Below, one piece after another: positions 792-22,707 of a stretch of 24,000 bases of DNA. Position 1 is the stretch's first letter. Every line of letters starts with the position of its first letter. Position numbers and translations under genes: made by a program. The notes beneath the pieces are model-generated. The model was not told the DNA's origin, ran no database searches, and was given only the letters and a program-made list of their open reading frames with translations. The DNA is from Sulfurovum riftiae (GTDB lineage Bacteria > Campylobacterota > Campylobacteria > Campylobacterales > Sulfurovaceae). The stretch covers positions 69,472-93,471 of the forward strand of contig NZ_LNKT01000045.1 of assembly GCF_001595645.1 (NCBI RefSeq). Direction: 5' to 3'.

Positions 792-1493
792 TTAAAAGTT
801 GTAACTTATACCAAAGTTCCAACTGTCAACTGAAACATCAAAATCTATATCATAACCAAAAACTTCTTCTGTTGTATCATCATCATATAATCTTACATAG
901 TCAATAAAAACTGATAGATTATTAATAATACTAAACGAAGCTCCAATACCCCAAGAAAGACCATCTTCATCTTCCTCCACATCATCAAAATCTATAGATG
1001 CATACCCCACTAAAATATAAATGTTAAAATCTTCATTTATAGGATAACTTGGTTTAATATAAATTCCCCATACATTTTCATCATCATTATCAGAAGAGCC
1101 TGAGCTATTCATCCAAGGATGCGTTGATGAGGTGTTAGTATAATCTATATCACCGAATGTTCTCCAGTATCTACCTTCAATGGCAATATACTGATTAAGT
1201 TTATATCCTGCTTGAAGCATTATTGTATTGAGATCATAATCAGATTCTGCCTGTATTATAATGGGGTGGTTCATGTTTGCTTCTGAATTTGCATTCATTG
1301 GTCCATATGCAAGACCCAAATAGAAACCTACATCAGATACAATGGCATTTTGTGGAGTGATAATATCACTAGAGGTATATCCACTGTCATGCTTTGCCTT
1401 ATACGAATTTGAACCATAGGCTGGATAAGATTCCGCCATCACTGTTGTACCTATTGCCAATGTTAAAATAAGTGAGAGTGTTAATTTTTTCAT
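792..1493 (-). CDS. Small outer-membrane beta-barrel protein (OmpA-like/OMP_b-brl type)
   Basis: Signal peptide MKKLTLSLILTLAIGTTVMA. Alternating aromatic/hydrophobic beta-strand pattern. C-terminus ends ...WNFGISYNF with a terminal Phe, typical of OMPs. GAGGAAA RBS upstream. The gene is AT-rich. Confidence 0.75.
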   Translation of the reverse strand: MKKLTLSLILTLAIGTTVMAESYPAYGSNSYKAKHDSGYTSSDIITPQNAIVSDVGFYLGLAYGPMNANSEANMNHPIIIQAESDYDLNTIMLQAGYKLNQYIAIEGRYWRTFGDIDYTNTSSTHPWMNSSGSSDNDDENVWGIYIKPSYPINEDFNIYILVGYASIDFDDVEEDEDGLSWGIGASFSIINNLSVFIDYVRLYDDDTTEEVFGYDIDFDVSVDSWNFGISYNF

Positions 1494-1958
1494 AAGATTT
1501 TTCCTCGTTTTTATGTCATTTTATTATATCTAAAGAAAATATAAAAGAATCTTTTCAGTTTCAAAAAATGTTGGGGGAATAGTCTTTCATTTGAGCACAC
1601 CTATTACGATCAAGAACGGCTTGAGGTCACTTTTAAGTTTTTTCTACTTTTTCCTGACAATACGACCTGAGTATTTACAGAATGGAAAGATCTTCCTGGA
1701 CCAGTGGACACAAATCCTCACAAACGACGCTGTAGCGTATCATTTCCATGGTTGGAAAGATGGAAATATTGATGAAAATCTTCTCTAGTTCTGCTTGAAG
1801 ATAGATTGAAGATTAGGATTTTGAGTTTTCAATAGCTCTCGTAGAGACTAAAAATATATAAATTAGATTTTAAAAGCAAAGATATAAGCAAGGCTCCTGA
1901 ATACTTTAGAAAAAGTTGTGATAATGGGTATTATCAGGGATGTTACAGAATAGGATTC

Positions 1959-2177
1959 ATGTATATATTAGCTCAAGTGGTAAATAAAGATAATGTTAAA
2001 TCTGCCGAATATTATAAAAAAAGATGTGATGGAAACGATACTGATAGTTGTGTATTTCTTGGAGCTGCCTATCTTGAGGGTGTAGGAGTAAGCAAAAATA
2101 AACTTAAAGCAAAGAGTTTCTATAAAAAGGCGTGTACTTTGGGAGATGTATATGCTTGTCAGAAGGTTATACCTTAG
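1959..2177 (+). CDS. Sel1-like repeat (Helicobacter cysteine-rich protein, Hcp-like) fragment, probably a 5'-truncated remnant
   Basis: Contains repeats of the type AxxYYKKxCDxxxxxxCxxLGxxYxxGxGVxKNxxKAxxFYKKACxLGxxxAC. The same frame stays open back to 1845 (..APEYFRKSCDNGYYQGCYRIGFMY..) with no start codon, so the N-terminus appears lost. Confidence 0.6.
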   Translation: MYILAQVVNKDNVKSAEYYKKRCDGNDTDSCVFLGAAYLEGVGVSKNKLKAKSFYKKACTLGDVYACQKVIP

Positions 2178-2294
2178 AAATTCAAAGTGGGGAAAGGAAG
2201 TATGATAGTTGCAAGGGTTATGGACGTATTAGAAATTTTAGTAGCTATTTCTCTCTGACTAAAAAGGTGGGGGAGTATAATCTGAAAGGTTTCC

Positions 2295-2837
2295 CCGATG
2301 CTTGCATCGGTTGGATTCAAGCCCAAAGAGCAGAGATGTTATGATATGGAATGAGTGATCATATTTTCAAAAGTCATAACAAAACAGTATTGTTGTATCA
2401 CTTGGTGTTTCCAGCAAAGTATCGGAGAAAAGTATTCAGTAAAGCTGTTGAGAAAACTTTGATTGAGACGTGTTTGGGAATAGCTCAAAGATATGAAATA
2501 CATTATTTTGGAAATTGGAAATGATGAGGACCATGTACATTTTTTGGTGCAAGGTGTTTCAAAGATGCCAGTTTCAAGAATAGTGCAGATTATCAAAAGT
2601 ATTACTGCTCGTGAGCTTTTTTCTCAACGCAAAGAGGTCAAGAAGCTTCTGTTGGGAGGGAATTTATGGACAAGTGGATTTTATGCTAATACAGTAGGAC
2701 AATATGCCAGTGAAGAAGCCCTTCGAAATTATGTCAAAAATCAAGGGTGAGAATACAACAAGGTGCATTCTGGTTAACTTCGGTTTGACTTTGAATGTTG
2801 AGACAGTTATGGATACCCCGTTGCTTGCAGTGGGGTA
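2295..2837 (+). mobile_element. IS200/IS605-family element (tnpA only) with left- and right-end hairpins
   Basis: Left hairpin: CCGATGC-TT-GCATCGG at 2295-2310. Right hairpin: CCCCGTTGC-TT-GCAGTGGGG within 2814-2837. Both share the core CCCCG(A/T)TGCTTGCA and flank a Y1-transposase ORF. Confidence 0.7.
2351..2750 (+). pseudogene. tnpA: IS200/IS605 family TnpA (Y1/HUH transposase), frameshifted
   Basis: The N-terminal part starts at ATG 2351 (MSDHIFKSHNKTVLLYHLVFPAKYRRKVF...AQRYEIH) and stops at about 2527. The C-terminal part (ILEIGNDEDHVHFLVQ...ITARELF...GGNLWTSGFYANTVG) is in another frame, ORF 2493..2750. The frame switch lies near 2495-2510. Confidence 0.8.
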
Positions 2838-2950
2838 GTTCATTTACATAACAGATATGTTTTCCCACATTCGTTAAGCAGTGTTGCATCATCCCCTCCT
2901 AACCAAAGTTATATTACAATAAGAACAAACTATCCTGTGGAGTCTCTGCC

Positions 2951-3799
2951 GTGAAAATCTTACTTATCAATTTCAATCCTGTTGTCTCCAGACTTTTTGC
3001 TTTGTGTACGCGTGATGCGCATATTGAGTTGGATGAAGTGGAGGAGGTCAGCGATGTTGAGAGGGGAAAGCACTATGATCTGCTGTTTGTGGATGATGCT
3101 TCCTATGTGGAGAGTGTCAAAGAGTTCATGGAGAGCAGAAGCATAGGCAAAAAAGTGTTTATCTCGTATGAGCCGGGGAGTGTTTCCGGTTTTAACCTCA
3201 CTCTGAAAAAACCTTTTCTTCCGTCACAAATCCTGAATATCATAGAGAATGCGACGGTTGCAGAAGAAGTGAAAGAGGAAGAGGAGGAAGCACCGGTGAT
3301 CTTCCCTTTGGATGAAGAGGAAAAGAACATTGAAGAGAGTAAAGAGGATTCAGAAGTGACACCGTCGATCTTTCCGTTGGCTGCGGAAGAGACAGAGGAA
3401 GAGGAGATCGTTCCGGAGAATCCTCACATACTCGACAGCAGAGAGATTGAAAAGATAAAGGATCTGCTCGATATGGAAGAGAATGAAATACTCCCTGTCG
3501 AAGAGGAGCTCCCCGAGGAAGTGGTGGAGCAGCGAAAGGTAGAGGCCATTACGGCTCAGCTGATCGCAGACGGGCTTGAGATCGTTGAGGAAGAGGAGAT
3601 CGTCAAGACGATACAGGCGGGAAAGAAGTCCAAAAAGAAGAAAAAAAAGGAAGATACGGGTCCTTTCAGCAAAGAGGAGTTCGATGCTATCCAAAAGGCA
3701 TTCAGGGAAGCACTTTTCAGCCTTAAACCCAAAAAGATCAAAAAACTTCTCAAAGGCAAAAAAGTAGAATTGAAATTGAAACTAAAGGATCAGGACTGA
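2951..3799 (+). CDS. Poly-E-rich acidic protein with a degenerate receiver-like N-terminal domain (positional equivalent of H. pylori HP0322)
   Basis: GTG start with GGAG 9 nt upstream. The N-terminal ~100 aa (MKILLINFNPVV...YDLLFVDD...KKPFLPSQIL) resemble a CheY-like fold. Long E/K low-complexity tail. The stop overlaps the gmk start (TGATG). Confidence 0.7.
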   Translation: MKILLINFNPVVSRLFALCTRDAHIELDEVEEVSDVERGKHYDLLFVDDASYVESVKEFMESRSIGKKVFISYEPGSVSGFNLTLKKPFLPSQILNIIENATVAEEVKEEEEEAPVIFPLDEEEKNIEESKEDSEVTPSIFPLAAEETEEEEIVPENPHILDSREIEKIKDLLDMEENEILPVEEELPEEVVEQRKVEAITAQLIADGLEIVEEEEIVKTIQAGKKSKKKKKKEDTGPFSKEEFDAIQKAFREALFSLKPKKIKKLLKGKKVELKLKLKDQD

Positions 3800-4413
3800 T
3801 GCATAAAGGGGCAATACTGGTACTTTCCGGACCCAGCGGAGCGGGGAAGAGTACCATTATCAATGCGGCTTCCGATGAGATAGGCGAGTACTACTTCTCC
3901 ATCTCCACAACGACAAGGGAACCAAGGGTCGGGGAAGAGGATGGTGTGGACTATTTCTTCGTGACCAAAGAGTGTTTTGAAGAAGATATCAAGGCGGGAA
4001 ATTTCCTGGAGTATGCACAGGTACACGGTAACTACTACGGTACCTCGCTCAAACCGGTCAAAGAAGCGCTTGCACAGGAAAAGCTGGTGATTTTCGATAT
4101 CGATATACAGGGACATCGGCTGGTACGGGCAAAGATGGATGATATCACGACCTCCGCTTTCATTACACCACCGACGCTCAAGGAACTTGAGACAAGGCTT
4201 CGTGCACGCTGTACGGATGATGAAGCGGTGATCCTCAGACGTATAGAGAATGCCAAAGAGGAGATCAAAGCGGTAGGAGAGTATGATTTTACGATCATCA
4301 ATGATACAGTAGAGGAAGCAGCGCAGAAATTCATCATTGTCGCCAAAGCAGCCAGACTCAAACAGAGCAAGGAAGATGAGGCGGAATTCATACAGCATTG
4401 GCTTGGCGTTTAA
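3799..4413 (+). CDS. gmk: Guanylate kinase
   Basis: P-loop GPSGAGKST and the guanylate kinase motif STTTREPRxGExDGxDYFFV. Confidence 0.95.
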   Translation: MHKGAILVLSGPSGAGKSTIINAASDEIGEYYFSISTTTREPRVGEEDGVDYFFVTKECFEEDIKAGNFLEYAQVHGNYYGTSLKPVKEALAQEKLVIFDIDIQGHRLVRAKMDDITTSAFITPPTLKELETRLRARCTDDEAVILRRIENAKEEIKAVGEYDFTIINDTVEEAAQKFIIVAKAARLKQSKEDEAEFIQHWLGV

Positions 4414-4507
4414 AAAAAACTGCTTATTGACGCTTCCTTAAACATTTTTAAGTATAATTGTTAAAATTTTTAAAATTGCACCTCAGAGTGCAGACAAAGG
4501 ATGAACC

Positions 4508-4732
4508 ATGGGTATGCCAAGTATGCCAGAGTTGCTGATCGTTTTGGCGATCGTTGTACTTCTTTTCGGAGCGAAAAAAATTCCAGATCTTGCAAAAGGA
4601 ATGGGTAAGGGTATCAAAGACTTCAAGAAAGCCATCAAAGAGGATGACGAAGAAGACGTAAAAGAGATCGCAAAGAAAGAAGAGCCGAAGGTCGAAGAGA
4701 AGACTGAAGAAAAAAAGAGCGAGAACGCTTAA
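4508..4732 (+). CDS. tatA: Twin-arginine translocase subunit TatA/E
   Basis: N-terminal TM helix plus hinge, [34 protein letters not shown], followed by an acidic/lysine tail. AAAGGA RBS. Confidence 0.9.
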
Positions 4733-4767
4733 GTTGAGCGCTGAGCGTTCAGCGTTCAGTGTTCGGA
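4733..4767 (+). repeat. Heptamer array GTTGAGC/GCTGAGC/GTTCAGC/GTTCAGT/GTTCGGA directly after the tatA stop; self-complementary
   Basis: 7-nt periodicity read directly. On the + strand RNA, 4733-4744 pairs with 4749-4760: 12 bp including 3 G.U, with loop GCGU. Confidence 0.8.
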
Positions 4768-4831
4768 ATATTCTACACAGTGTGTTTAGCACACCTCCAC
4801 CTACTATCCCACAAAAATTACGGAATTGTCT

Positions 4832-6529
4832 ATGAAGCTAAAAGAAAAAATTAACAAAGTTATTAAAAAAGCTTTTGAAAAAGCGGGTATCGATGAAACA
4901 CCTATTCCTGTTTCCGAAGCGACCAAACCGGAGTTCGGGGACTATCAGTTCAACGGTGCAATGGCGCTTTCGAAGAAACTGGGAAAGAACCCAAGAGAGA
5001 TTGCAACAGAAATCTTGGAACATCTTGATCTTTCAGGAATTCTGGCCAAAGCAGAAATTGCAGGACCGGGGTTCATCAACCTCTGGCTGAACGATGATTG
5101 GGTAGCGAAAGCCTGCCGGGAGGCATGTGAAGATAAAAGATTGGGTGTTGCAAAAAAATCCGATCCGATCAAAGTGGTAGTGGACTACTCCGGGCCGAAC
5201 ATGGCAAAACAGATGCACGTAGGACACCTTCGTTCCACGATCATCGGCGATACGCTGGCAAACCTTCTGGAATTCCTCGGTGATGAGGTGATACGCCAGA
5301 ACCATGTCGGAGACTGGGGAACACAGTTCGGTATGCTCATTGCCTATCTCGAAGAGATGGGTGAAGATGGTTCGGGTTCTCTCCAGGACCTGGAACAGTT
5401 CTATAAAGATGCCAAGAAGCGTTTCGATGAAGATGAAGCGTTTGCGAACAAGGCAAGAGAGTATGTCGTCAAAATACAGAGCGGTGACCCGCATTGCCTG
5501 AACCTCTGGCAGAAATTCATCGATATTTCTCTGGGACACTGCGAGGTCGTTTATGAAAAGCTCGATGTCAATCTGAAACGCGAACATGTGCGAGCGGAGA
5601 GTTTCTACAACGAAGAATTGCCGAAGGTGATAGATGAACTCGATGCGGTCAAGATGCTTCAGGAGAGCGACGGTGCACAGTGTGTCTTCCTCGAAGGCGA
5701 AGAGATACCTGTGATCGTCCAGAAGGGTGACGGAGGGTATCTGTATGCCACGACAGACCTGGCTGCATTGCGCTACAGAGCCAATGTGCTGGGGGCCAAA
5801 CGTATCTCCTATGTGGTGGATGCTCGACAGGCAGAGCACTTCAAACAGGTCTTCAAAGTGGCAAAGGCTTCCGGTTTCGTCCCTGAGGATGTCAAACTGG
5901 AGCATATCGCTTTTGGAACGATGATGGATGCGGGTGGCAAACCTTTTAAAACACGTGACGGTGGAACGGTAAAGCTCATCGATCTTCTTGATGAAGCTGT
6001 GGTCAAAGCCAAAGCGGCGATCAAAGAGAAGGATGACTACTCTGAAGAGGAGATAGAGAGACTGGCGAAGATCATCGGTATCGGTGCGGTGAAGTATGCA
6101 GACCTCTCCATCAATCGTGAGTCGAACTATATCTTCAACTGGGACAAGATGCTCTCCTTCGAGGGAAATACCTCACTCTATATGCAGTATGCCTATGCGA
6201 GGATACAGAGTATCTTCAGGAAGTATGGGGGTCGGATAAACGGAGAGATCATCATTACAGATACACTCGAACACCGCTTGAGTGTCATGCTGCTTCGTTT
6301 CGAAGAGGTGCTTGAGAGGGCAGCGGAAGATGCTGCACCCAATCAGATCACGACCTATCTGTATGAACTGGTGACACTCTTCATGCGTTTTTATGAGCAG
6401 AACCCGATACTCAAAGAGGGCGTGGATGAGAAGACAAAACAGTCACGTCTTGCCCTGGCGGATATGACGGCAAGAACGATCAAGCAGGGATTGGATATAC
6501 TGGGAATTGATGTGGTGGACAAGCTCTAA
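4832..6529 (+). CDS. argS: Arginine--tRNA ligase
   Basis: Class I HIGH motif (HVGHLRS). ArgRS-typical N-terminal and DALR anticodon-binding regions (GAVKYADLS, LYMQYAYARI). I prefer ATG 4832 to the TTG at 4826. Confidence 0.93.
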   Translation: MKLKEKINKVIKKAFEKAGIDETPIPVSEATKPEFGDYQFNGAMALSKKLGKNPREIATEILEHLDLSGILAKAEIAGPGFINLWLNDDWVAKACREACEDKRLGVAKKSDPIKVVVDYSGPNMAKQMHVGHLRSTIIGDTLANLLEFLGDEVIRQNHVGDWGTQFGMLIAYLEEMGEDGSGSLQDLEQFYKDAKKRFDEDEAFANKAREYVVKIQSGDPHCLNLWQKFIDISLGHCEVVYEKLDVNLKREHVRAESFYNEELPKVIDELDAVKMLQESDGAQCVFLEGEEIPVIVQKGDGGYLYATTDLAALRYRANVLGAKRISYVVDARQAEHFKQVFKVAKASGFVPEDVKLEHIAFGTMMDAGGKPFKTRDGGTVKLIDLLDEAVVKAKAAIKEKDDYSEEEIERLAKIIGIGAVKYADLSINRESNYIFNWDKMLSFEGNTSLYMQYAYARIQSIFRKYGGRINGEIIITDTLEHRLSVMLLRFEEVLERAAEDAAPNQITTYLYELVTLFMRFYEQNPILKEGVDEKTKQSRLALADMTARTIKQGLDILGIDVVDKL

Positions 6530-7982: not shown

Positions 7983-8978
7983 ATGGCTGTAAAAGTAGCG
8001 ATAAACGGATTGGGCAGGATCGGTAGATGTGTGGCACGTATCATTGCAGACAGAGATGATATTGAGCTGGTTGCGGTCAATGCGAGCGGAACGGAGGAGA
8101 TGCTTGAATACAACCTCAAATACGACTCTGTACACGGCAGACGAACGGATATCACTGTAGCGGACGGGTATGTGAATATCGGCAGGACCAAAGCGAAGAT
8201 CTTTGCGGAACGTGAACTTGAGAAGCTCGATTTTGCTTCCTGCGGTGCAGAGATCGTGCTTGAATGTACAGGGGCGTTCCTGACTGCCGAGAGCGTACAG
8301 CCGTACCTTGACAACGGTATCAAAAAGGTGCTTTTTTCCGCACCTGCAAAAGATGACACAGCTACTTTCGTTCTGGGCGCCAATGCCGATGCGTATGCCG
8401 GTCAGTCCATTGTTTCCAATGCAAGCTGTACCACGAACGGTCTGGCACCTGTCGCCAAAGTGCTTGATGACGCTTTCGGCATCCAGAAGGGGCTTATGAC
8501 AACGATCCACTCCTATACCTCTTCACAGCCGATCCTCGATGCAAAGCACAAGAAAGACCCGAGAAAAGGGCGCGCAGGGGCACTCAATATCCTGCCGACG
8601 ACAACAGGTGCGGCCAAGGCGATCTCCAAAGTGCTTCCCCAGCTTGAAGGCAAACTCAACGGACAGGCGATCAGGGTACCGACCCCGGATGTCTCCATGG
8701 TGGACCTGACGGTCACACTCAATGAAGAGGTGATCCTCGATGAGGTCAAAGCCGCATTCAAGATCGCAAGCGAGGGCTCACACAAAGGGATCCTCGGTGT
8801 GGATGAAGAGTACAGGGTCTCCCAGGACTTCGTAGGTGAGGAGCTCAGCTCCGTAGTGGCACTCGATACCATTCAGGTGATCGGCGGCAATATGGTCAAG
8901 GTACTCTCCTGGTATGACAATGAGTGGGGATACTCCTGCAGACTGGTAGACATGGCTGTGCACATCAGCAAGAAATAA
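7983..8978 (+). CDS. gap: Glyceraldehyde-3-phosphate dehydrogenase (type I)
   Basis: INGLGRIGR NAD-binding motif, active site SNASCTTN, C-terminal WYDNEWGYS. Confidence 0.96.
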   Translation: MAVKVAINGLGRIGRCVARIIADRDDIELVAVNASGTEEMLEYNLKYDSVHGRRTDITVADGYVNIGRTKAKIFAERELEKLDFASCGAEIVLECTGAFLTAESVQPYLDNGIKKVLFSAPAKDDTATFVLGANADAYAGQSIVSNASCTTNGLAPVAKVLDDAFGIQKGLMTTIHSYTSSQPILDAKHKKDPRKGRAGALNILPTTTGAAKAISKVLPQLEGKLNGQAIRVPTPDVSMVDLTVTLNEEVILDEVKAAFKIASEGSHKGILGVDEEYRVSQDFVGEELSSVVALDTIQVIGGNMVKVLSWYDNEWGYSCRLVDMAVHISKK

Positions 8979-9009: not shown

Positions 9010-10203
9010 ATGAAAACAGTAAAAGATATCGATATTGACGGCAAAAGAGTATTTATACGATGTGACTTCAACGTACCAAAAGACGAATTCGGTAACATCA
9101 CCGATGACAGACGTATCCGTTCTGCACTGCAGACGATCCGCTACTGCATTGACAGAGACTGCAAGATCATTCTTGCATCACATTATGAGAGACCGGAACC
9201 GGGCAAGTATGAAGAGAAATACTCTTTGAAACCCGTAGCAAAAAGGCTGCATACCCTTCTGAAGATCAAAAATGAACTCTATATGGCCAATGATGTGGTC
9301 GGTCCGGATGCCAAAGAGAAAGCGGCCAAACTGGAGGCAGGTGACGTTCTGATGCTTGAGAACCTTCGTTATGAAGCAGGGGAGACCAGCAATGATGAGG
9401 CATTTGCCAAAGAGTTGGCTTCCTTTGCCGATGTCTATATCAATGACGCTTTCGGTGCTTGCCATAGAAAGCATGCTTCTATCTATGCTATTGCAAAACA
9501 GTTCGACAGAGACCATAAAGCGGCAGGTTTTCTGATGGCAAAAGAAGTTAACTTCTTCAGCAAAGTACTTGAAGAACCTATCAGACCCTTTGTGGCGGTG
9601 GTAGGCGGATCGAAAGTATCGGGTAAACTTCAGGCTTTGACCAACCTCCTCAATAAAGTGGACAAAGTCATTATCGGCGGCGGTATGGCATTTACTTTTC
9701 TCAAGGCACAGGGCTATGAGATCGGCAAATCGCTGGTGGAGGATGACCTGATCGACGAAGCAAGGGACATCATGGAAAAAGCGCACTCTCTGGGTGTGAA
9801 ATTCTACCTCCCTGTCGATTTTGTCGTGGCACCGGAATTTTCAGAGAATACAGCAGTCAAATACCTTCCTTCCCAGGAGATCCCTCATGACTGGATGGGG
9901 CTCGATACGGGACCGGCCTCTTCAAGACTTTTCCGTGAAGTGCTCAACGATGCACAGACGATCATCTGGAACGGGCCAATGGGCGTGTACGAGATGGACA
10001 AGTTCTCCAAAGGGAGTATCATGATGTCTCACCATATCGCGGAGACACATGCAACGACCATTGTTGGCGGTGGTGATACTGCTGATGTGGCACAAAGAGC
10101 CGGGGATGTGGATGAAATGACCTTTGTCAGTACCGGAGGCGGTGCAAGCCTCAAGCTGATAGAGGGAATCAAACTTCCCGGTCTTGAAGCATTAGAAAAG
10201 TGA
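9010..10203 (+). CDS. pgk: Phosphoglycerate kinase
   Basis: RxDFNVP, GGAKVSxK-like (GGSKVSGK), GGGDT and STGGGA motifs. The stop codon TGA forms the first 3 nt of the heptamer array. Confidence 0.96.
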
Positions 10204-10228
10204 ACAGAGTACAGTGAACAATGAACAA
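10199..10228 (+). repeat. Cassette 1, 5' arm: tandem heptamers TGAACAG/AGTACAG/TGAACAA/TGAACAA
   Basis: 7-nt periodicity read directly. 10209-10223 (GTACAGTGAACAATG) is the perfect reverse complement of 10582-10596. The arm contains the pgk stop and the four-helix-bundle ATG. Confidence 0.9.
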
Positions 10229-10580
10229 TAATATTTTGAGTGAAAAAAGTTTTTCTTTTGCCCTTAGAATCATTAAATTGTCATCGTTCCTAACTGATAA
10301 AAAAAGAGAGTATACTCTTTCAAAACAGATTTTACGAAGTGGTACTTCAATTGGTGCTTTGGTGCGTGAAGCACAATATGCACAGTCCAAATCGGATTTT
10401 ATTCATAAATTAAGTATTGCACTTAAAGAAGCCAATGAAACAGAATATTGGTTGCAGTTATTGGTAGAGTCTGAATATATAAGTCGTAAGATGTTTGAAA
10501 GTATTGAACCAGAAATAAAAGAGTTATTGAGATTATTGATCTCAAGTATAAAAACCACAAAACAAAATATAAATACATAA
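10221..10580 (+). CDS. Four-helix-bundle protein (23S rRNA intervening-sequence protein family, TIGR02436/PF05635, Avd-like), copy 1
   Basis: Family-typical KSFSFALRIIKL...LSKQILRSGTSIGALVREAQYAQSKSDFIHKLSIALKEANETEYWLQLL. About 119 aa. Much more AT-rich than pgk and tpiA. Confidence 0.9.
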   Translation: MNNNILSEKSFSFALRIIKLSSFLTDKKREYTLSKQILRSGTSIGALVREAQYAQSKSDFIHKLSIALKEANETEYWLQLLVESEYISRKMFESIEPEIKELLRLLISSIKTTKQNINT

Positions 10581-10581
10581 G

Positions 10582-10614
10582 CATTGTTCACTGTACATTG
10601 TACATTGTTCACTG
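10582..10614 (+). repeat. Cassette 1, 3' arm: tandem heptamers CATTGTT/CACTGTA/CATTGTA/CATTGTT/CACTG
   Basis: 7-nt periodicity. Inverted complement of the 5' arm. Starts 2 nt after the ORF stop and ends just before the tpiA RBS (AAAGGA). Confidence 0.9.
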
Positions 10615-10626
10615 AAAGGATACCCT

Positions 10627-11316
10627 ATGATCTTTGCTGCCAACTTTAAAATGAACCATACGCGTGCGACGACCAAAGCCTATCTGGATGTATTGGCTCA
10701 GAAGCTGGTTTCAAAATGCAGTGAAGACCGTGTTTTCATTTTTCCGCCTGCCACGGCACTGGATAGGTATGAAGGTGATTTTACGATTGGAGTGCAGAAT
10801 GCCTATATGGCGGAGTCCGGTGCCTATACCGGTGAGATCGGCCTGGAACAGCTTGAAGAGTTCGGCATAAAGACCATTCTCATCGGCCATAGTGAAAGGC
10901 GTGATGTTCTGGGTGAGGACCAGGCACTGGTCGCTGAGAAATTCGCCTATTTCAAAGCGCAGGGTTTCGAGATCGTCTACTGTATCGGTGAAGCATTGGA
11001 GGTAAGGGAAAAGGGAGATGAAGCGGTAATGGCACATCTTCTTTCCCAGTTCGAGGGGATCGACCTCTCGTATGAAAAACTCATCATTGCCTATGAACCG
11101 ATCTGGGCGATCGGTACAGGGCGTTCTGCGACGACAGAAGAGATCTCCTCTACACATGCGTCACTCAAAGAGCACTTTGACAGGCCTCTGCTCTATGGCG
11201 GCTCCGTCAAACCTGAAAACATCAAAGAGATCACTGCAATTGATGGTGTGGATGGTGTTCTGGTAGGTTCCGCTTCTTTGGATGTGGAGCGTTTTTCCGA
11301 AATGATCTTCGCGTAA
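10627..11316 (+). CDS. tpiA: Triose-phosphate isomerase
   Basis: MIFAANFKMN start, IGHSERR, YEPIWAIGTG, GGSV motifs. Confidence 0.95.
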   Translation: MIFAANFKMNHTRATTKAYLDVLAQKLVSKCSEDRVFIFPPATALDRYEGDFTIGVQNAYMAESGAYTGEIGLEQLEEFGIKTILIGHSERRDVLGEDQALVAEKFAYFKAQGFEIVYCIGEALEVREKGDEAVMAHLLSQFEGIDLSYEKLIIAYEPIWAIGTGRSATTEEISSTHASLKEHFDRPLLYGGSVKPENIKEITAIDGVDGVLVGSASLDVERFSEMIFA

Positions 11317-13010: not shown

Positions 13011-13037
13011 CTTACACTCATTAAACACTTTATCTTC

Positions 13038-13067
13038 TACCCCTACCCACATTACCCACTACCCACT
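13038..13067 (+). repeat. Approximately heptameric tract TACCCC/TACCCACAT/TACCCAC/TACCCAC just upstream of the miaB ATG
   Basis: Read directly. Opposite polarity (CTAC vs GTAG) to the 12983-13010 tract and only partly complementary to it. It occupies the place where an SD would be expected. Confidence 0.6.
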
Positions 13068-13072
13068 ATAAA

Positions 13073-15063: not shown

Positions 15064-15900
15064 ATGAAAGAGAAGCTTCAAAACTATGTAGAAGATTTTC
15101 TTGAATATCTTCTTGATGTTCGCGGGTACTCTGAACTTTCTGTGGAGACCTACGAGATCGCGTTGCGACAGATGGGTGAGGTGAGCCATTTTTATGAAGA
15201 GGACGGCATGACGGTGCTCGATATCACCCCATTTCGTTTCAAGATCGTTAAAAACAGTAAAAAGACCATTGTCAAAAAACTCTCAGCCGTGCGCTCTTTC
15301 GTCAAATACCTTGAAGAGCAGTGCCATCTTTTGGTCAAACTCATTGCAGATGAGTCCATAAAGGTACCCCAAAGCCTCCCCAAGCCTATTGAAGAGCAGT
15401 ATATAGACGAGGTGTTGGAGAAGGCCAATTTGGAGGAGAAACTGCTTATAACGATGTTGTATGGTTTGGGACTGAGAATTTCTGAACTCAGTGGGATGAA
15501 ACTGGAAGATATCAAAGGTGAGTGGGTACAGATACATGGGAAAGGGAATAAAGTAAGAGAGTTGCCTTTGATGGAGGAATTAACGAGACTGATCAAATTG
15601 TATCGTGACCGTTATGTGCCTAAAAGGTATCTTTTTGAAAAAGGCAATGCTCCGATGAACGCGGCACAACTGCGCTACAAATTGACAAAACTCTTTAAAA
15701 AAGAGGGGCTGAAGGTCACCCCTCATCAACTGCGCCACTCTTTTGCGACACATCTTCTCAACCATGGTGCAAGAATAGCCGATGTCAGCGAACTCCTGGG
15801 GCATGAGACGATGGCCACGACACAGGTCTATACCAAACTTGGGTCGGTAAAGAAGATGCAGGAGTATATGAAGGCGCATCCACTCGCAAAAGAGGAGTGA
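15064..15900 (+). CDS. xerH: Tyrosine site-specific recombinase, XerH/XerC-D type
   Basis: Catalytic motifs LGLRISE (Arg I), HQLRHSFATHLL (H-x-x-R), LLGHETMATTQVYT (catalytic Tyr). GGAGG RBS. Confidence 0.85.
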   Translation: MKEKLQNYVEDFLEYLLDVRGYSELSVETYEIALRQMGEVSHFYEEDGMTVLDITPFRFKIVKNSKKTIVKKLSAVRSFVKYLEEQCHLLVKLIADESIKVPQSLPKPIEEQYIDEVLEKANLEEKLLITMLYGLGLRISELSGMKLEDIKGEWVQIHGKGNKVRELPLMEELTRLIKLYRDRYVPKRYLFEKGNAPMNAAQLRYKLTKLFKKEGLKVTPHQLRHSFATHLLNHGARIADVSELLGHETMATTQVYTKLGSVKKMQEYMKAHPLAKEE

Positions 15901-15948
15901 CCCTTCGACAGGCTCAGGGACCGAGGAAAAAAATCGTTTATCCCGTAG

Positions 15949-15975
15949 GGTGGGCTTCAGCCCACCTTTCTTTAC
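15949..15975 (+). terminator. Hairpin plus T-rich tail downstream of xerH (first hairpin of a double-hairpin element)
   Basis: GGTGGGC-TTCA-GCCCACC followed by TTTCTTTAC. Confidence 0.55.
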
Positions 15976-16036
15976 AATTCGGATTTGAAATAATAATCCA
16001 TTTGTCTATAGGTTTTTTGGTGGGCTAAAGCCCACC

Positions 16037-17020
16037 CTACGGAAGTATTGTTAGGTCAATATTTTCCCGGTACAAATACGCTCTGATCTTGGGAGGAATC
16101 CTTTTGACCCTGCACTTTTCTTTGAATTCTTTTGGCATATCTGTTGTAACGTAGGGGGCAACATAAAGAAGGTCATCCTCTATTTCAATTGCCCACTCCC
16201 CACCAATGACCAGACTTTTTTCTCTTGCTATTTCTTCTCTCTGAGCAGAGGAAAGAAGATATCCCAGTTTTTTCAGTGTAAGGTCAGCAGCTTTTACTTT
16301 TGAACTAGTCTGCCTGAGTTTGATGATACGCAGTTGTTTTTCAGCGAAAAGCGTTTCGAAACCGGATTCGAGCAGTTTTTTATCGTCTCTCAGATAGGAA
16401 AAACTTCGTTTGATCCCCTCTCTGAATTGGGAAATGAGCGGATCGGAAAACGCTTTTCTAAAACGGTTACGTTCATATTTTTCATTGCTGTTGCTGTCGT
16501 CTATGAAATAGGGATAGTTATGTATTTCTAAATAATCAAGCAGTTCTTCCTTGGAATATTCAAGAAGAGGTCGAATCAAAGTATATCCATCCCTTTTACT
16601 TACTGGTTCAAGCCCAATGAGTTCTGAAAGCCCGGCTCCTTTGGTCAGGCGCATAAAAAGCCATTCAAGCTGGTCGTTCAGTTGATGTGCGGTCAGAAGC
16701 GTATCGTAGCCATGTTCTGCAATAAGGGTTTCAAAAAAATCGTAGCGGAATTTTCGTGCGTTTGCTTCAAAATGAGTTTTGAATACTGGTGCCTTGGTGG
16801 TGTAACACTTTTTGCCATATTTTTTCGCCAATGCTTTGGCATGCTCCTCTTCCTTGTTACTTTCCGGTCGTGTTCCGTAATTCACCAACGCGATATCGAA
16901 AGGGATATTGTTTTCCAAAAGAAGGAAAAAGAGGGCGGAAGAGTCTATTCCTGCTGAGAAGGCGAGCAGATTCTTCTTTTGAAGTAGGAAGTAGGAAGTA
17001 GGAAGTAGCAATTGAGACAT
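16037..17020 (-). CDS. tilS: tRNA(Ile)-lysidine synthetase
   Basis: PP-loop SAGIDSS (SGGxDS type) and a TilS-like central region. The first ~13 codons (MSQLLLPTSYFLL) are encoded by cassette/repeat sequence. The ATG overlaps the upstream four-helix-bundle stop (TAATG). Confidence 0.88.
   Translation of the reverse strand: MSQLLLPTSYFLLQKKNLLAFSAGIDSSALFFLLLENNIPFDIALVNYGTRPESNKEEEHAKALAKKYGKKCYTTKAPVFKTHFEANARKFRYDFFETLIAEHGYDTLLTAHQLNDQLEWLFMRLTKGAGLSELIGLEPVSKRDGYTLIRPLLEYSKEELLDYLEIHNYPYFIDDSNSNEKYERNRFRKAFSDPLISQFREGIKRSFSYLRDDKKLLESGFETLFAEKQLRIIKLRQTSSKVKAADLTLKKLGYLLSSAQREEIAREKSLVIGGEWAIEIEDDLLYVAPYVTTDMPKEFKEKCRVKRIPPKIRAYLYRENIDLTILP
16981..17008. repeat. Cassette 2 arm: (GAAGTAG)x4, perfect, lying inside tilS codons 4-13
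   Basis: Four identical tandem heptamers read directly. Reverse complement of 17373-17396 (24 nt, perfect). Confidence 0.95.
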
Positions 17021-17373
17021 TATATAGATTCTTTGATTTTTTTTGTACTTGAAATAAGAAGTTTTAGAAGCTCATCTATTTCAGGAGCAATACTATTGTA
17101 CATTTTCTCATTGATATAATTAGATTCATTGAGTATTAAGAGCCAATATTCTGTTTCATTTGCTTCTTTAAGTGCGATAGTAAGCTTGTGTAGAAAATCA
17201 GCTGTTGATTGTGCATATTGTGCTTCTCTTATGAGTGCTCCAATGGATGTTCCACTTCGTAAAATTTGTTTTGAAAGTATATGTTCTTTGTGATTTTTCT
17301 GTAAATACTGGGAAAGCTTGACAATACGTAAGGCAAAAGAGAAACTTTTGTCGCGTAAGAGATCTTTTTTCAT
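17020..17373 (-). CDS. Four-helix-bundle protein (23S rRNA IVS protein / Avd-like family), copy 2
   Basis: KSFSFALRIVKL...LSKQILRSGTSIGALIREAQYAQSTADFLHKLTIALKEANETEYWLLIL. 117 aa and AT-rich. Lies 2 nt after the rimO stop and overlaps the tilS start by 1 nt. Confidence 0.9.
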   Translation of the reverse strand: MKKDLLRDKSFSFALRIVKLSQYLQKNHKEHILSKQILRSGTSIGALIREAQYAQSTADFLHKLTIALKEANETEYWLLILNESNYINEKMYNSIAPEIDELLKLLISSTKKIKESI

Positions 17374-17399
17374 TCCTACTTCCTACTTCCTACTTCCTC
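17373..17399. repeat. Cassette 2 arm: (TTCCTAC)x3 plus one degenerate unit, forming the rimO C-terminus and stop and reaching the first base of the four-helix-bundle start codon
   Basis: Read directly. Encodes the RimO tail ..SEEVGSRK* on the minus strand. Perfect 24-nt complement of 16981-17008. Confidence 0.95.
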
Positions 17400-18704
17400 A
17401 CTGATGAGTGTTGCCAGCAATTGGCTTCCTACCAGTTCTGTCACCTTTGCTTCATACACTTTTCCATATTCGACCGGGAGGTCGGAAGTGTCGTTGATGA
17501 GGACCTCACCATCAATATCTACTGCCCACTGAAGCGGCCTGGCAGAGAGAAGGTACTCATGCTCGTCGCTTTCGCCGTCGATGACAAGTTCAATGGTCTT
17601 GCTTACCATTTTTTCCAACGATCTTAATGTTGAGGCTTCAGCGATCTCCCCGAGTATCTCTGCTCTCTCATCGATGATCTCCTGGGGGATCTGCTGCATT
17701 GCATAGGCTGTTGTGGTTTCCTCATTGGAATAATGGAAAGTATTGAATCTGTCGAAGCCGAAGTTTTCCATGAAGGTACAGAGTTTCTCAAAGCTCTCCT
17801 GTGTCTCTCCCGGATGCCCTGCAATGACAGAGGTTCTCAGGAAAGCATTGGGTTTGCTTTTCATGTATTCAAGCAGCTCGATGGTTTTCTGCTCGCCAAA
17901 ACCACGCTTCATGATCTTGAGTACAGCATCGTCGATGTGCTGGATAGGCATATCATAGTAGGTCTGGAAGATCTTTGAGTCGGCAATGGCATCGATGAGT
18001 GCAAAGGTGGTCGTGCTTGGATAAAGGTACAGAATACGTGCCGAGCGTACACCTTCAATGGATTCAACAGCATTGATGAGGTCGATGAGTCCGTCTTTGA
18101 GACCCATATCTCTTCCGTAACTCGAGGAGTCCTGTGAGATGAAGGAGAAGTCATAATAGCCTTGTGCAGCCAGCATAGTTACTTCTTTTTCAATGGAAGA
18201 GAGCGAGCGTGAATGCAGTTTTCCTTTGAAGCTCGGAATGGCACAGAAGGAGCAGGCCTGGTTACACCCCTCGGCGATCTTGATATAGGCATGGTAATTC
18301 GAACCGGTAATGACCCTGCCGGAAGTTTCTGTTGCCAGGTAGACTTCCGGGGAGAAGGTACTCTGTTTTGAAGCAATGAGTTCATCGATCTTCTCATAGT
18401 CACCCACACCGGTAAAGATATCGATCTCCGGCATATCCTGCTGAAGCTCCTCTTTGTAACGTTCTGAAAGACAGCCGCTCATGACAAGGATGGACTCTTC
18501 TTTTCGCTGGTTATGCAGTTCCAGTACTGTGTTGATACTCTCTTCTTTTGCCGCATCGATGAAGCCGCAGGTATTGACGATAATGACATCGGCTTCTGTA
18601 TTGTCATCGGTGATCTCATACTCTTTGAGACGGCCAAGCATCACTTCGCTGTCAACAAGGTTTTTGGTACAGCCAAGGCTTACCAGATGTAGTTTTTTAG
18701 ACAT
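17376..18704 (-). CDS. rimO: Ribosomal protein S12 methylthiotransferase
   Basis: MSKKLHLVSLGCTKNLVDSE N-terminus, radical SAM CNQACSFC, TRAM domain. I prefer ATG 18704 to the ORF-track start at 18779. Confidence 0.92.
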   Translation of the reverse strand: MSKKLHLVSLGCTKNLVDSEVMLGRLKEYEITDDNTEADVIIVNTCGFIDAAKEESINTVLELHNQRKEESILVMSGCLSERYKEELQQDMPEIDIFTGVGDYEKIDELIASKQSTFSPEVYLATETSGRVITGSNYHAYIKIAEGCNQACSFCAIPSFKGKLHSRSLSSIEKEVTMLAAQGYYDFSFISQDSSSYGRDMGLKDGLIDLINAVESIEGVRSARILYLYPSTTTFALIDAIADSKIFQTYYDMPIQHIDDAVLKIMKRGFGEQKTIELLEYMKSKPNAFLRTSVIAGHPGETQESFEKLCTFMENFGFDRFNTFHYSNEETTTAYAMQQIPQEIIDERAEILGEIAEASTLRSLEKMVSKTIELVIDGESDEHEYLLSARPLQWAVDIDGEVLINDTSDLPVEYGKVYEAKVTELVGSQLLATLISEEVGSRK

Positions 18705-18734
18705 AGTTTTTCTTTTAGTTATAAAATTTTTGAG

Positions 18735-18743
18735 ATTATAGCA
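18735..18743 (-). promoter_or_regulatory. Extended -10 (TGCTATAAT) candidate promoter for rimO
   Basis: The minus-strand sequence TGCTATAAT lies about 31 nt upstream of the rimO ATG. Confidence 0.5.
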
Positions 18744-18843
18744 TATTCTTGTAGATAGAAAAATCGAAGGATCCGTCATTCTCGGCTTGACTGGGAATCT
18801 ATAGATATCGTTCTAAATAATAAGGTTTGAATTTTTTTAAGGG

Positions 18844-20921: not shown

Positions 20922-22166
20922 TTAAAGTTGTTTTACCAGGTTCATAAAGATCTCTCCTCTTTGGGCGTAATTCTTGAACTGGTCAAAACTTGCAGCGGCG
21001 GGGGAGAGGAGGCCTACATCATCGGCCTGCATATTTTTGTCAATGGCATGTACGGCGTTTTCAAGTGTGTTTGATTCGACGGCAGGGATATTGTATTCCC
21101 TGGCAAGTGAAAGAAGTCTTTCGCTGTTCGCCCCGATCGTATATAATGTAAGTGAAACCTGGGACATGGCTTCAAAATAGGGGTGCAGGTCAACACCCTT
21201 GTCATCCCCCCCTGCAATGAGGTGGATGTGATGGTCGTCATAGGCCTTTATGGCCTGGACCGCGGCATCCACATTGGTTGCTTTGGAGTCATTCACCCAG
21301 AGTCTTCCTTGTGCATCGTGGAACTCCTGCTGCCTGTTGAGATCCATTTTGAAGGTATTGATACAGGCATAGTCCACTTCGTCGAAAAGGACACGGGTCA
21401 CTGCCAGTGCCAGCATGGCATCTTCCAGAAAGGCCGCTTTGAAGTTGATGAGGGCCGGGTCAATGTTGAAATAGTCCGAGAGGAAATCTGTGGAGTCGTA
21501 CTCGACGACAAAAGCATCTGTTTCAGGCAGGTTCAGCCCTTTGGGGACCAGTGCCAGCTCCCCCTCTTTCATGGTAAGCAGCGGACGGAGCTTGTCTGCC
21601 TCATAGGCCTCTTCCGTACCGTGCCAATCAAGATGATCCGGTGTGATGGGAAGCAGGAGATAAATATCCGGTGAGGCGGTCTTTGTATAGTGAAGGGCAT
21701 AGGAACTTGACTCGAGTACCCAGATGGGGGCTTCTGCATCCATTGCCGCCAAGGGTACGCCGATGTTTCCCCCGCTTACCGCACCCCTGTGTTCGAGCAG
21801 GTGGGTAAGCATCTGGGTGGTGGTGGTCTTGCCATTGGTGCCACTGATCCAAACTGTGAATGGCATATGCCGTTCAAGTGAAGAGTGAAGAGTGAAGAGT
21901 GAAGAATGATGTGGTGCCAGAATGTAGTCATATTCGCTCAAAAGATGTTTGGCTTTCTGAATGAGCGGATGGTTTGGCTTGAGGCTTGGTGTAGTGACCT
22001 CAAGTTCACTTTTGTCCGGATCGAACAGCGAAGAGGGCAGTATCTTGTTGCCTTCCTCATCTGTATAGGGTTCTTTGACATTGTCATCATAGAAGATACA
22101 TCCCCCTCCCAGCTTTTTGGCAATGGCTCTAGTGGTCAGTCCGTATCCGAATAGTGTGGGCTTCAT
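20922..22166 (-). CDS. murD: UDP-N-acetylmuramoylalanine--D-glutamate ligase
   Basis: Epsilon-type N-terminus MKPTLFGYGLTTRAIAKKL, P-loop GTNGKTTTT, Mur ligase central and C-terminal domains (NDSKATN). Carries an in-frame heptamer-array insertion just before the P-loop. Confidence 0.93.
   Translation of the reverse strand: MKPTLFGYGLTTRAIAKKLGGGCIFYDDNVKEPYTDEEGNKILPSSLFDPDKSELEVTTPSLKPNHPLIQKAKHLLSEYDYILAPHHSSLFTLHSSLERHMPFTVWISGTNGKTTTTQMLTHLLEHRGAVSGGNIGVPLAAMDAEAPIWVLESSSYALHYTKTASPDIYLLLPITPDHLDWHGTEEAYEADKLRPLLTMKEGELALVPKGLNLPETDAFVVEYDSTDFLSDYFNIDPALINFKAAFLEDAMLALAVTRVLFDEVDYACINTFKMDLNRQQEFHDAQGRLWVNDSKATNVDAAVQAIKAYDDHHIHLIAGGDDKGVDLHPYFEAMSQVSLTLYTIGANSERLLSLAREYNIPAVESNTLENAVHAIDKNMQADDVGLLSPAAASFDQFKNYAQRGEIFMNLVKQL
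21879..21907. repeat. Intragenic heptamer array (TGAAGAG)x3 plus TGAAGAA inside murD
   Basis: Read directly. Same sequence and orientation as the 22187-22216 arm. Translated on the minus strand as HHSSLFTLHSSLE. Confidence 0.9.
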
Positions 22167-22186
22167 GAAAAACTCCGCTTTTCAAA

Positions 22187-22216
22187 TGAAGAGTGAAGAG
22201 TGAAGAGTGAAGAGTG
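22187..22216. repeat. Cassette 3 arm: (TGAAGAG)x4 between the four-helix-bundle stop and the murD RBS
   Basis: Four perfect tandem heptamers. Reverse complement of 22657-22677. Confidence 0.95.
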
Positions 22217-22250
22217 TTGGTTTGCATTGCTGTGCAATGCTTCTATTATA

Positions 22251-22610
22251 TCAGGATGCATTGTTGATGTTCTCTTTTGCTGTTTTGATACTTGATGCAA
22301 GTATTTTTAAAAGGTGTTCTATATCGTCAAGGAGACTAAGTGCAAGTTTTTCCTGAAGATAATTACAGTCCTTTAAAAGCCGTAGCCAGTATTTTGTTTC
22401 ATTTGCTTCTTTAAGTGAAATAGATAGTTTATTGATAAAGTCAAGTTTTGATTGTGCATACTTGCCTTCTGCGATCAAGGCACCAATCGCCGTTCCTGAA
22501 CGTAAAAGCTGTTTGCTAAGAATAAATTCTTTTTTCTCTTGCTGTAAATACTCATTACATTTTACAATGCGAATGGAAAAATTGTAACTCTTCTCTTCTA
22601 GTATACTCAT
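22251..22610 (-). CDS. Four-helix-bundle protein (23S rRNA IVS protein / Avd-like family), copy 3
   Basis: KSYNFSIRIVKC...LSKQLLRSGTAIGALIAEGKYAQSKLDFINKLSISLKEANETKYWLRLL. 119 aa, AT-rich, and the most diverged of the three copies. Confidence 0.88.
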   Translation of the reverse strand: MSILEEKSYNFSIRIVKCNEYLQQEKKEFILSKQLLRSGTAIGALIAEGKYAQSKLDFINKLSISLKEANETKYWLRLLKDCNYLQEKLALSLLDDIEHLLKILASSIKTAKENINNAS

Positions 22611-22656
22611 GGTTCTTTCTCAAAAGATGGAAGCTTTCTGAAAGAAAGCATACCAC

Positions 22657-22688
22657 AACTCTTCACTCTTCACTCTTAATTCTTCACT
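22657..22688. repeat. Cassette 3 arm: ACTCTTC/ACTCTTC/ACTCTTA/ATTCTTC/ACTG between the mraY stop and the four-helix-bundle gene
   Basis: 7-nt periodicity. 22658-22677 is a perfect 20-nt complement of the (GAAGAGT)n arm. Confidence 0.9.
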
Positions 22689-22707
22689 GCTCAAAGTAAA
22701 GCTTTGA

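Follow-up and report, generated by a model that had tools for sequence, protein, structure and literature searches.

The intervening sequence (IVS) in helix 45 of the Coxiella burnetii 23S rRNA is a 428-444-nt element that carries an S23p (PF05635) open reading frame (ORF) and has complementary termini with a 28-bp terminal stem (PMC4990558). Three tandem GACAGAT heptamers, whose copy number varies among strains, lie ahead of the start codon of this ORF, which has a poor Shine-Dalgarno sequence, and RNase III cuts the element in vitro within the stem, at the first repeat; the ORF itself has been described as decaying and probably untranslated (PMC4990558). Here we analyze a related element, cassette 1, in which a PF05635 gene bracketed by inverted heptamer arrays separates pgk from tpiA in Sulfurovum riftiae. 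It lies in a 24,000-nt stretch of contig NZ_LNKT01000045.1 (positions 69,472 to 93,471), which we refer to as the window.

Tandem heptamer arrays have also been reported in their own right. TAACTGA arrays in Beggiatoaceae, cyanobacteria and Bacteroidetes close all reading frames, overlap the stop codons of upstream genes and abut start codons that have no ribosome-binding site (MacGregor 2015, PMC4679880). A study of TTTTGAA/TTCAAAA arrays in Nostoc 7120 postulated an unidentified heptamer-binding partner, and 'five tandem heptanucleotide repeats MTYCTGA' have been described in Geobacter metallireducens. PF05635 proteins have been described as homopentameric (PMC4990558), as has Xcc0516 in work cited there, and PF05635 genes located between cmr3 and cmr2 have previously been taken to be cas-associated (PMC3936711). 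In the open-access literature that we searched, PF05635 genes bracketed by inverted heptamer arrays are not described outside rRNA, nor are tandem heptamer arrays linked to PF05635 genes, and an IVS-type cassette in mRNA operons appears to be undescribed in that context.

The hairpin cassette between pgk and tpiA

Cassette 1 is inserted precisely between the pgk stop codon and the tpiA ribosome-binding site (Table 1). The pgk stop is the first TGA within the 5' array, and the four heptamer units of this array also hold the start codon of the cassette ORF (ATG, 10221-10223). The C-terminus of Pgk is of normal length in comparison with relatives. The ORF ends in a TAA codon (10578-10580) and is followed by a 3' array that is non-coding at this junction, with its last base adjoining the GAAAGGA of the tpiA ribosome-binding site. 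The sequence GTACAGTGAACAATG (10209-10223) is the exact reverse complement of 10582-10596, and with a repeat finder the arms grew to 29 nt (83% complementary). An earlier note on this DNA had located the pgk stop, the ORF start, both arrays and the perfect 15-bp match, all of which hold on a sequence check. It had also proposed that the ORF encodes a four-helix-bundle protein, and this was borne out by full-length matches to PF05635 (96.8 bits; cut-off 33.8) and TIGR02436 (108.3 bits; cut-off 24).

The cassette 1 protein also matched PDB entry 2RLD (E 1e-40), an uncharacterised protein deposited with five chains, and judging from its homologues it could assemble into a homopentameric toroid. 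It is mildly basic (18 K+R versus 14 D+E), and we know of no catalytic motif in PF05635. An identity as a HEPN-like RNase was considered and found no support in the searched open-access literature.

We folded positions 10150-10660 as RNA, a check that the earlier note had suggested, and found a thermodynamically favored long-range stem in both the minimum-free-energy and the centroid structures (z = -3.97). In the register favored by the partition function, 10199-10229 pairs with 10583-10613 (28 pairs over 31 positions, 2 of them G.U; pair probability at least 0.9 for 25 of the 28), and both the pgk stop and the ORF ATG are buried. The arm-arm duplex reached -35.1 kcal/mol, whereas 500 shuffled versions of the 3' arm gave -10.1 ± 3.0 kcal/mol (best value -21.4). 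The pairing potential amounts to a helix of about 28 bp. The arms, being heptamer repeats, can pair in several registers, and while the long helix that had been proposed does exist, its preferred register is shifted from the proposed one by 7 nt, or one heptamer. The folding also supports the proposal that the stem would occlude the ATG and bring the 3' end of pgk beside the 5' region of tpiA. The further suggestion that the insert might be bypassed was not upheld: bypass is unnecessary, since pgk, the ORF and tpiA each start and stop in a reading frame of their own. Excision of cassette 1 at the RNA level is plausible by homology to the Coxiella 23S IVS, which is cut by RNase III in its stem.

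The likeness to ORF-bearing 23S IVS (Coxiella, Leptospira) extends to protein family, size (~420-440 nt), a long terminal stem (~28 bp) with the PF05635 ORF in its loop, and heptamers that form part of the stem just ahead of the ORF start. As in the Coxiella element, TGA-containing heptamers stand just before the ATG (GACAGAT in tandem equals TGACAGA), the Shine-Dalgarno sequence is weak or absent, and transcription depends on the host. Unlike these IVS, cassette 1 is not located in an rRNA helix but between the protein-coding genes pgk and tpiA of an mRNA operon, its start and stop codons interlock with the neighboring genes, and its ORF is under strong purifying selection where that of Coxiella is described as decaying and untranslated. 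Cassette 1 also fits the description of TAACTGA-type arrays, with which the cassette arrays share a period of 7, a stop codon per unit and a tolerance of reverse orientation inside ORFs, although the heptamer itself differs (TGAACAR) and the published reports treat such arrays as stand-alone putative regulator sites. With somewhat more confidence than doubt, we read cassette 1 as an IVS-type hairpin cassette that resides not in rRNA but in an mRNA operon, a promoterless unit with a PF05635 gene between inverted heptamer arrays.

Insertion, selection and shared design

The earlier note had described the cassette as an insert that splits pgk from tpiA, and relatives in which the two genes abut agree with this. 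The pgk-tpiA junction was empty in metagenome relatives L081-L086, whose TpiA proteins are 65-74% identical to that of the window. In L082 the pgk stop lies 1 nt from the tpiA ATG, and in L085 and L086 it is followed directly by AAAAGGA, the same ribosome-binding site as at the window tpiA. These empty junctions identify cassette 1 as an insertion. An orthologous cassette occupies the same junction in L161 (protein 98% identical), L162 (78%) and L164-166 (77%). Between the window and L162 or L164, identity was 73-80% for TpiA, 81-91% for Pgk and 77-78% for the cassette protein; at the rimO/tilS site, which holds a second cassette (cassette 2), comparison with L002 gave 89% for RimO, 71% for TilS and 84% for the cassette protein. 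Cassette protein and host genes have diverged in parallel and, because same-junction orthologues have kept pace with their hosts, the cassette is an old resident and not a recent or freely excising element. Gains or losses do happen: L081 and the cassette-bearing L164 share 91% identity in TpiA, yet L081 has no insert at this junction.

A footprint of the insertion event was sought at the window junction, where the only candidate target-site duplications were TGA (3 nt; 10201-03 and 10613-15) or GAAA (4 nt), both too short for significance. The closest empty site, in L081, was no help, as its 120-nt spacer is unrelated. The first letters of this spacer (L081, about 70-190), TGCGCGACTTCTTCACTATAT, bear a weak resemblance to a decayed 3' array (TTGTTCACTGTAC); the spacer also has a small hairpin of its own.

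Both the ORFs and the arrays proved to be conserved. dN/dS values (non-synonymous over synonymous substitution rates) ranged from 0.04 to 0.25 with synonymous sites saturated, and from 0.04 to 0.07 for the cassette 1 ORF against its orthologues. In a four-way alignment (window, L161, L162 and L164), the non-coding 3' array was the most conserved stretch, with 29 of 31 columns invariant (94%) compared with 34% of third codon positions (p = 1e-9) and 81% of second positions. Outside the ORF, the 5' array (10199-10220) had 68% invariant columns (p = 0.004), and the spacer to tpiA had 31%. The protein and both arrays of cassette 1 are under purifying selection.

A scan of one genome per species returned more than 575 relatives, and we analyzed the best 80, which are 55-74% identical to the window proteins. 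These came from Campylobacterota, Bacteroidota, Chloroflexota, Cyanobacteriota, Acidobacteriota, Planctomycetota, Verrucomicrobiota and Spirochaetota, as well as from Gammaproteobacteria and others. Of 76 testable loci, drawn from more than 10 phyla, 80% had an inverted repeat in the flanks (score of at least 12), compared with 1% after shuffling and 24% when flanks were swapped between loci. The arms have a period of 7, and period-7 arrays were found at 52.5 per 100 kb in cassette loci versus 3.6 per 100 kb in control loci (363 kb). Of 47 loci, 33 had the stop codon of the upstream gene within the 5' array and a further 11 had it 4-9 nt ahead of the array; median gaps were 1 nt from array to ATG and 5 nt from ORF stop to 3' array. 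Arrays typically comprised 4-5 units (median 4.6-4.8; 46 of 64 3' arrays), a figure obtained with a score threshold in Tandem Repeats Finder that truncates short arrays. Both neighbors were co-directional with the ORF in 57 of 60 loci, against a background of 53% in other gene triples (p = 8e-13). There was no excess of promoters or terminators at cassette loci, and no rRNA was found at 18 atypical relative loci. Cassette 1 belongs to a widespread cross-phylum family that keeps the same tight geometry; the family comprises 11,496 protein clusters at 50% identity (E ≤ 1e-3).

More distant members with the same build (48-57% identity) were found on Nostoc and Bernardetia plasmids. On plasmid pNPUN01 of Nostoc punctiforme (L170, 2440-3020) the cassette, flanked by GTCGGAG arrays, lies just upstream of xisH-xisI and beside Tn7-like tnsA/Mu-transposase genes, and on the Bernardetia plasmid (L169, 2330-2950) 16 tandem TTAGTGA units stand upstream of a cassette that precedes recF. 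Overall, the family was present on 32 of 72,556 plasmids, mostly cyanobacterial megaplasmids, and gave two matches among viral contigs and none in PADLOC or PHROG; on these counts a phage, defence or plasmid origin was rejected.

Similarity between cassette proteins tracked similarity between their heptamers, even between phyla (Spearman 0.45; permutation p ≤ 0.001), and proteins of TGAAAAG cassettes from four phyla were 70-83% identical to one another. By mutual information, some protein columns split by heptamer class, a pattern in which binding specificity and shared descent are not separable. Genomes with cassettes also carry many ORF-less arrays of the same heptamer. In L051 (Symbiothrix, 1072-5410) and L018 (Thermoguttaceae, 898-6117) a forward/reverse pair of the local cassette's heptamer was observed at every operon junction. 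The short loops of these pairs hold conserved mini-ORFs (in L018, MKxxxxFxxNxxRLRHCSLF..., entering the reverse array).

Nearly every heptamer holds a stop codon, with a consensus of TGA-N-A-R-N and sometimes a TAG or TAA unit. As a period of 7 is coprime with 3, three or more stop-bearing units close all three reading frames. Read inward, the 5' arms of 56 of 61 loci had stops in at least two frames, and those of 31 had them in all three (shuffled expectation for three frames, 18%); 3' arms read inward from the other side showed the same pattern. Read outward, the arms had no stop in 34-36 of the 61 loci. The cassette ends incoming translation from either side and is open to outgoing translation. 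A few arrays have no stop codon and resemble Shine-Dalgarno sequences, such as GTCGGAG in Nostoc and CAGGGAG in L011.

Cassette 2 displays the same fit to reading frames. The TAG stop of rimO is the last unit of its 5' array, 2 nt ahead of the ORF ATG, and the tilS ATG overlaps the stop codon of the cassette ORF, as TAATG in the window (16981-17022, minus strand) and as ATGA in L002 (2389-2430) and L001 (1339-1390). tilS is read through the 3' array (residues about 4-14), an arrangement that also occurs in L007 (3358-3400) and is conserved across three heptamer types, and we found no alternative tilS start downstream of the 3' array.

Other cassettes and heptamer arrays in the window

The window holds three cassettes, at pgk|tpiA, rimO|tilS and mraY|murD, each with its own heptamer sequence (Table 1). 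The other two proteins are 68% and 57% identical to that of cassette 1, and the three copies are 57-68% identical with different ends. The arms of cassette 2 (24 nt, 100% complementary) formed a terminal stem in the predicted fold (z = -3.5), as did those of cassette 3 (z = -5.1), where the stem can be extended to about 60 nt (22187-22246 with 22627-22686). In this cassette, unlike cassettes 1 and 2, the stem runs inward past the heptamers into unique complementary sequence (22216-22246 and 22627-22656; 60 nt, 77%), and the 5' array is set apart from the ATG by a 45-nt leader that holds a weak ribosome-binding site.

Table 1. Coordinates of the glycolytic genes, the three cassettes and the solitary heptamer elements (window numbering).
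Feature	Position	Strand	Details
gap	7983-8978		Precedes pgk in the operon order gap-pgk-ORF-tpiA
pgk (phosphoglycerate kinase)	9010-10203	+	PF00162, E 1.8e-150; TGA stop 10201-10203
Cassette 1, 5' heptamer array	10199-10229	+	Units AGTGAAC, AGAGTAC, AGTGAAC, AATGAAC, AAT
Cassette 1, four-helix-bundle ORF	10221-10580	+	119 aa; PF05635, E 1e-27; TIGR02436, E 2e-31
Cassette 1, 3' heptamer array	10582-10613	+	Units CATTGTT, CACTGTA, CATTGTA, CATTGTT, CACT; inverted partner of 5' array
tpiA ribosome-binding site and coding sequence	10614-11316	+	AAAGGA 10615-10620; ATG 10627; coding sequence 10627-11316; PF00121, E 2e-69
Cassette 2	16981-17398	-	Between rimO (17376-18779) and tilS (16037-17020)
Cassette 2, 5' array	17373-17398	-	GGAAGTA units
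Cassette 2, ORF	17020-17373	-	
Cassette 2, 3' array	16981-17012	-	
Cassette 3	22185-22693	-	Between mraY (22708-23766) and murD (20922-22166)
Cassette 3, 5' array	22656-22693	-	TGAAGAG units
Cassette 3, ORF	22251-22610	-	
Cassette 3, 3' array	22185-22216	-	
Solo TGAAGAG array inside murD	21877-21909	-	Reverse (no-stop) orientation, read in frame
ORF-less mini heptamer hairpin	4733-4764		Between tatA stop and argS; loop-less forward/reverse pair directly after tatA stop
Solo reverse-orientation heptamer array (complement TGGGTAG)	13037-13068		Ends 4 nt before miaB-like ATG (13073)

Heptamer arrays also occur in the window without an ORF. The solo array inside murD belongs to a 45-nt in-frame insertion just ahead of the P-loop. 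MurD of L004 (about 3640-3680) has no insertion at that position, and in L016 (3660-3770) the same murD codon position holds, in frame, an inverted heptamer hairpin of about 108 nt that has no ORF. The remaining genes in the window are housekeeping genes, the single recombinase being an Xer-like tyrosine recombinase (15064-15900). In the convergent gap between this gene and tilS we observed a 24-nt, 96% complementary G+C-rich inverted repeat (CCGTAGGGTGGGCTTCAGCCCACC; 15943-15966 and 16019-16042), which is unrelated to the heptamer arrays. No rRNA was found in the window, and an Rfam search of it returned one tRNA only.

A model for cassette 1, its rivals and its implications

From these features we infer a model in which cassette 1 would be transcribed only within read-through of gap-pgk-tpiA. 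The 5' array would stop translation arriving from the pgk side beside the ORF ATG, and the ORF would be translated by termination-reinitiation coupling. This ATG has no Shine-Dalgarno sequence, and since the ORF is clearly under selection, coupling to pgk termination is the simplest account of its translation. The 3' array, open in all frames, would hand over to the downstream ribosome-binding site. Without ribosomes to hold them apart, the arms would pair in vivo into a long double-stranded RNA stem that hides the ATG. Homology to the Coxiella IVS makes this stem a probable target of RNase III, whose cleavage would yield separate pgk, cassette and tpiA pieces.

Several observations weigh against this model. 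The Coxiella IVS protein is reported to be probably untranslated (PMC4990558), unlike the protein under strong purifying selection here. Closing of reading frames is not universal, given the stop-free GTCGGAG and CAGGGAG arrays. Among mismatches between arms, G.U and A.C on the sense strand were equally common (62 versus 61), and this absence of a wobble bias lowers our confidence in a function of the RNA stem. Among orthologues the 5' arm drifts without compensation in the 3' arm, and covariation was seen only where both arms at one site had switched to another heptamer type altogether, which independent insertion could also explain. In L007 (3367-3396) and L008, all four 3' units have changed from the CTACTTC of the window and L002 to CTACCTC while the 5' array is unchanged, a concerted change that leaves one A.C mismatch per unit; array identity thus seems to have been kept better than arm pairing has. 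Nor does pairing alone require as much conservation as the 3' array shows. Taken together, the uncompensated drift, concerted units, excess 3' conservation and lack of a G.U bias suggest that the arrays matter as arrays, which keeps alive two rival explanations, one based on protein binding and one on DNA mobility.

In the first of these, for which the excess conservation of the 3' array speaks, the arrays would be sequence-specific binding sites for the cassette's own pentamer, each subunit contacting one heptamer of single-stranded RNA or DNA in a TRAP-like manner, with pairing secondary. The pentamer would then autoregulate its own start codon, or modulate neighbors and ORF-less arrays in trans. 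The usual array length of 4-5 units matches the five chains of 2RLD and the homopentamer described for the family (PMC4990558), but this length would equally suit an RNase III substrate of 28-35 bp, and the truncation of short arrays by the detection threshold also bears on it. Likewise, the correlation between protein and heptamer similarity and the protein columns that split by heptamer class are in line with recognition, yet joint inheritance or transfer of ORF and arrays explains the correlation equally well. The abundance of ORF-less arrays of the same heptamer and the binding partner postulated in the Nostoc study also speak for protein binding, and the merely mild basicity of the protein speaks against it; on balance we consider this explanation unlikely. 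We are just as doubtful that the cassette is a DNA-level mobile element whose arrays are ends for movement or gene conversion, the hairpin being incidental. Such an element would be the ORF-carrying counterpart of a miniature inverted-repeat transposable element (MITE) or of REPIN-RAYT systems. In the latter, a single gene is flanked by inverted repeats, the same repeats recur as ORF-less hairpin doublets at intergenic sites, and RAYT is an HUH/Y1 transposase. The cassettes resemble them in pairing an inverted-repeat-flanked single gene with ORF-less versions in the same genome, one of them in frame inside murD, but have no transposase, nuclease or recombinase domain. MITEs of the Correia/ERIC type are inverted-repeat elements between co-transcribed genes, with RNA hairpins that undergo RNase III processing or change the stability of the mRNA; they are non-coding, have many near-identical copies and fixed terminal repeats, and duplicate a TA target. 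Membership in this class was rejected, as the cassettes have a conserved ORF, copy-specific tandem-heptamer ends and no clear target duplication beyond the 3-nt TGA repeat. Presence and absence at pgk-tpiA, with L081 empty beside L164, would suit mobility, as would the recurrence of one design across more than 10 phyla with proteins 55-75% identical, the joint travel of ORF and heptamer type across phyla, the lack of a G.U bias and the concerted change of units within arrays. The low identity and different ends of the window copies, however, mean that no recent transposition is visible, and cassette divergence keeps step with host genes. The candidate TGA duplication carries no significance, and matches among viral contigs and plasmids are rare. 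The 95% co-orientation and codon-level geometry point instead to constraints from transcription and translation.

Two further explanations can be dismissed with more assurance. A weak match to the Avd model (NF033474, E 5e-4) raised the possibility of an accessory gene of a diversity-generating retroelement, whose Avd protein is of the same fold class (pentameric four-helix bundle), and a promoterless ORF with a hairpin-forming repeat, in a window with a tyrosine recombinase gene, that of an integron gene cassette. Both are very improbable and are effectively refuted by the Avd score, the gene content of the window and the recombinase score. The Avd match (20.3 bits) is far below the cut-off of 80, all neighbors are housekeeping genes, and neither a reverse transcriptase nor template/variable repeats occur nearby. 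The Xer-like recombinase scored 89 bits against the 265 cut-off of the integron integrase model, and the cassettes are dispersed among housekeeping genes instead of being arrayed beside intI, with repeats on both flanks instead of a single 3' attC. Chance, low-complexity coincidence or an assembly artefact can hardly be credited at all: heptamer repeats permit many registers and so inflate apparent complementarity, but the shuffle controls, the three independent cassettes of the window, about 60 further loci in independent assemblies and orthologues on four metagenome contigs rule this out.

A broader idea, which we regard as a long shot, is that the PF05635 pentamer is the partner of the tandem-heptamer arrays of cyanobacteria, Beggiatoaceae, Bacteroidota and Geobacter, the two together making up a self-propagating, horizontally transferred post-transcriptional module. 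If so, each subunit would read one 7-nt unit, and a ring would take up about five of them. The insertion sites of the module would be cistron boundaries and, in the form of the 'IVS', rRNA helices; it would control the processing or translation of host operons, and ORF-less heptamer hairpins would be its non-autonomous satellites. The cassettes themselves offer a candidate link between two orphan observations, the four-helix-bundle proteins and the heptamer arrays at gene starts.

The question of the origin and function of rRNA IVS and their S23p ORFs dates from the early 1990s. Should the rRNA IVS turn out to be a single landing site within a much larger class of mRNA-operon cassettes, ordinary operons would offer a way to approach it. 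The cassettes also advise caution about guilt by association, as a position between cmr3 and cmr2 is what a promiscuous intercistronic cassette would give without any functional link. Finally, essential operons for glycolysis, cell-wall synthesis and tRNA modification, and even the murD coding sequence, tolerate such inserts over long evolutionary time.

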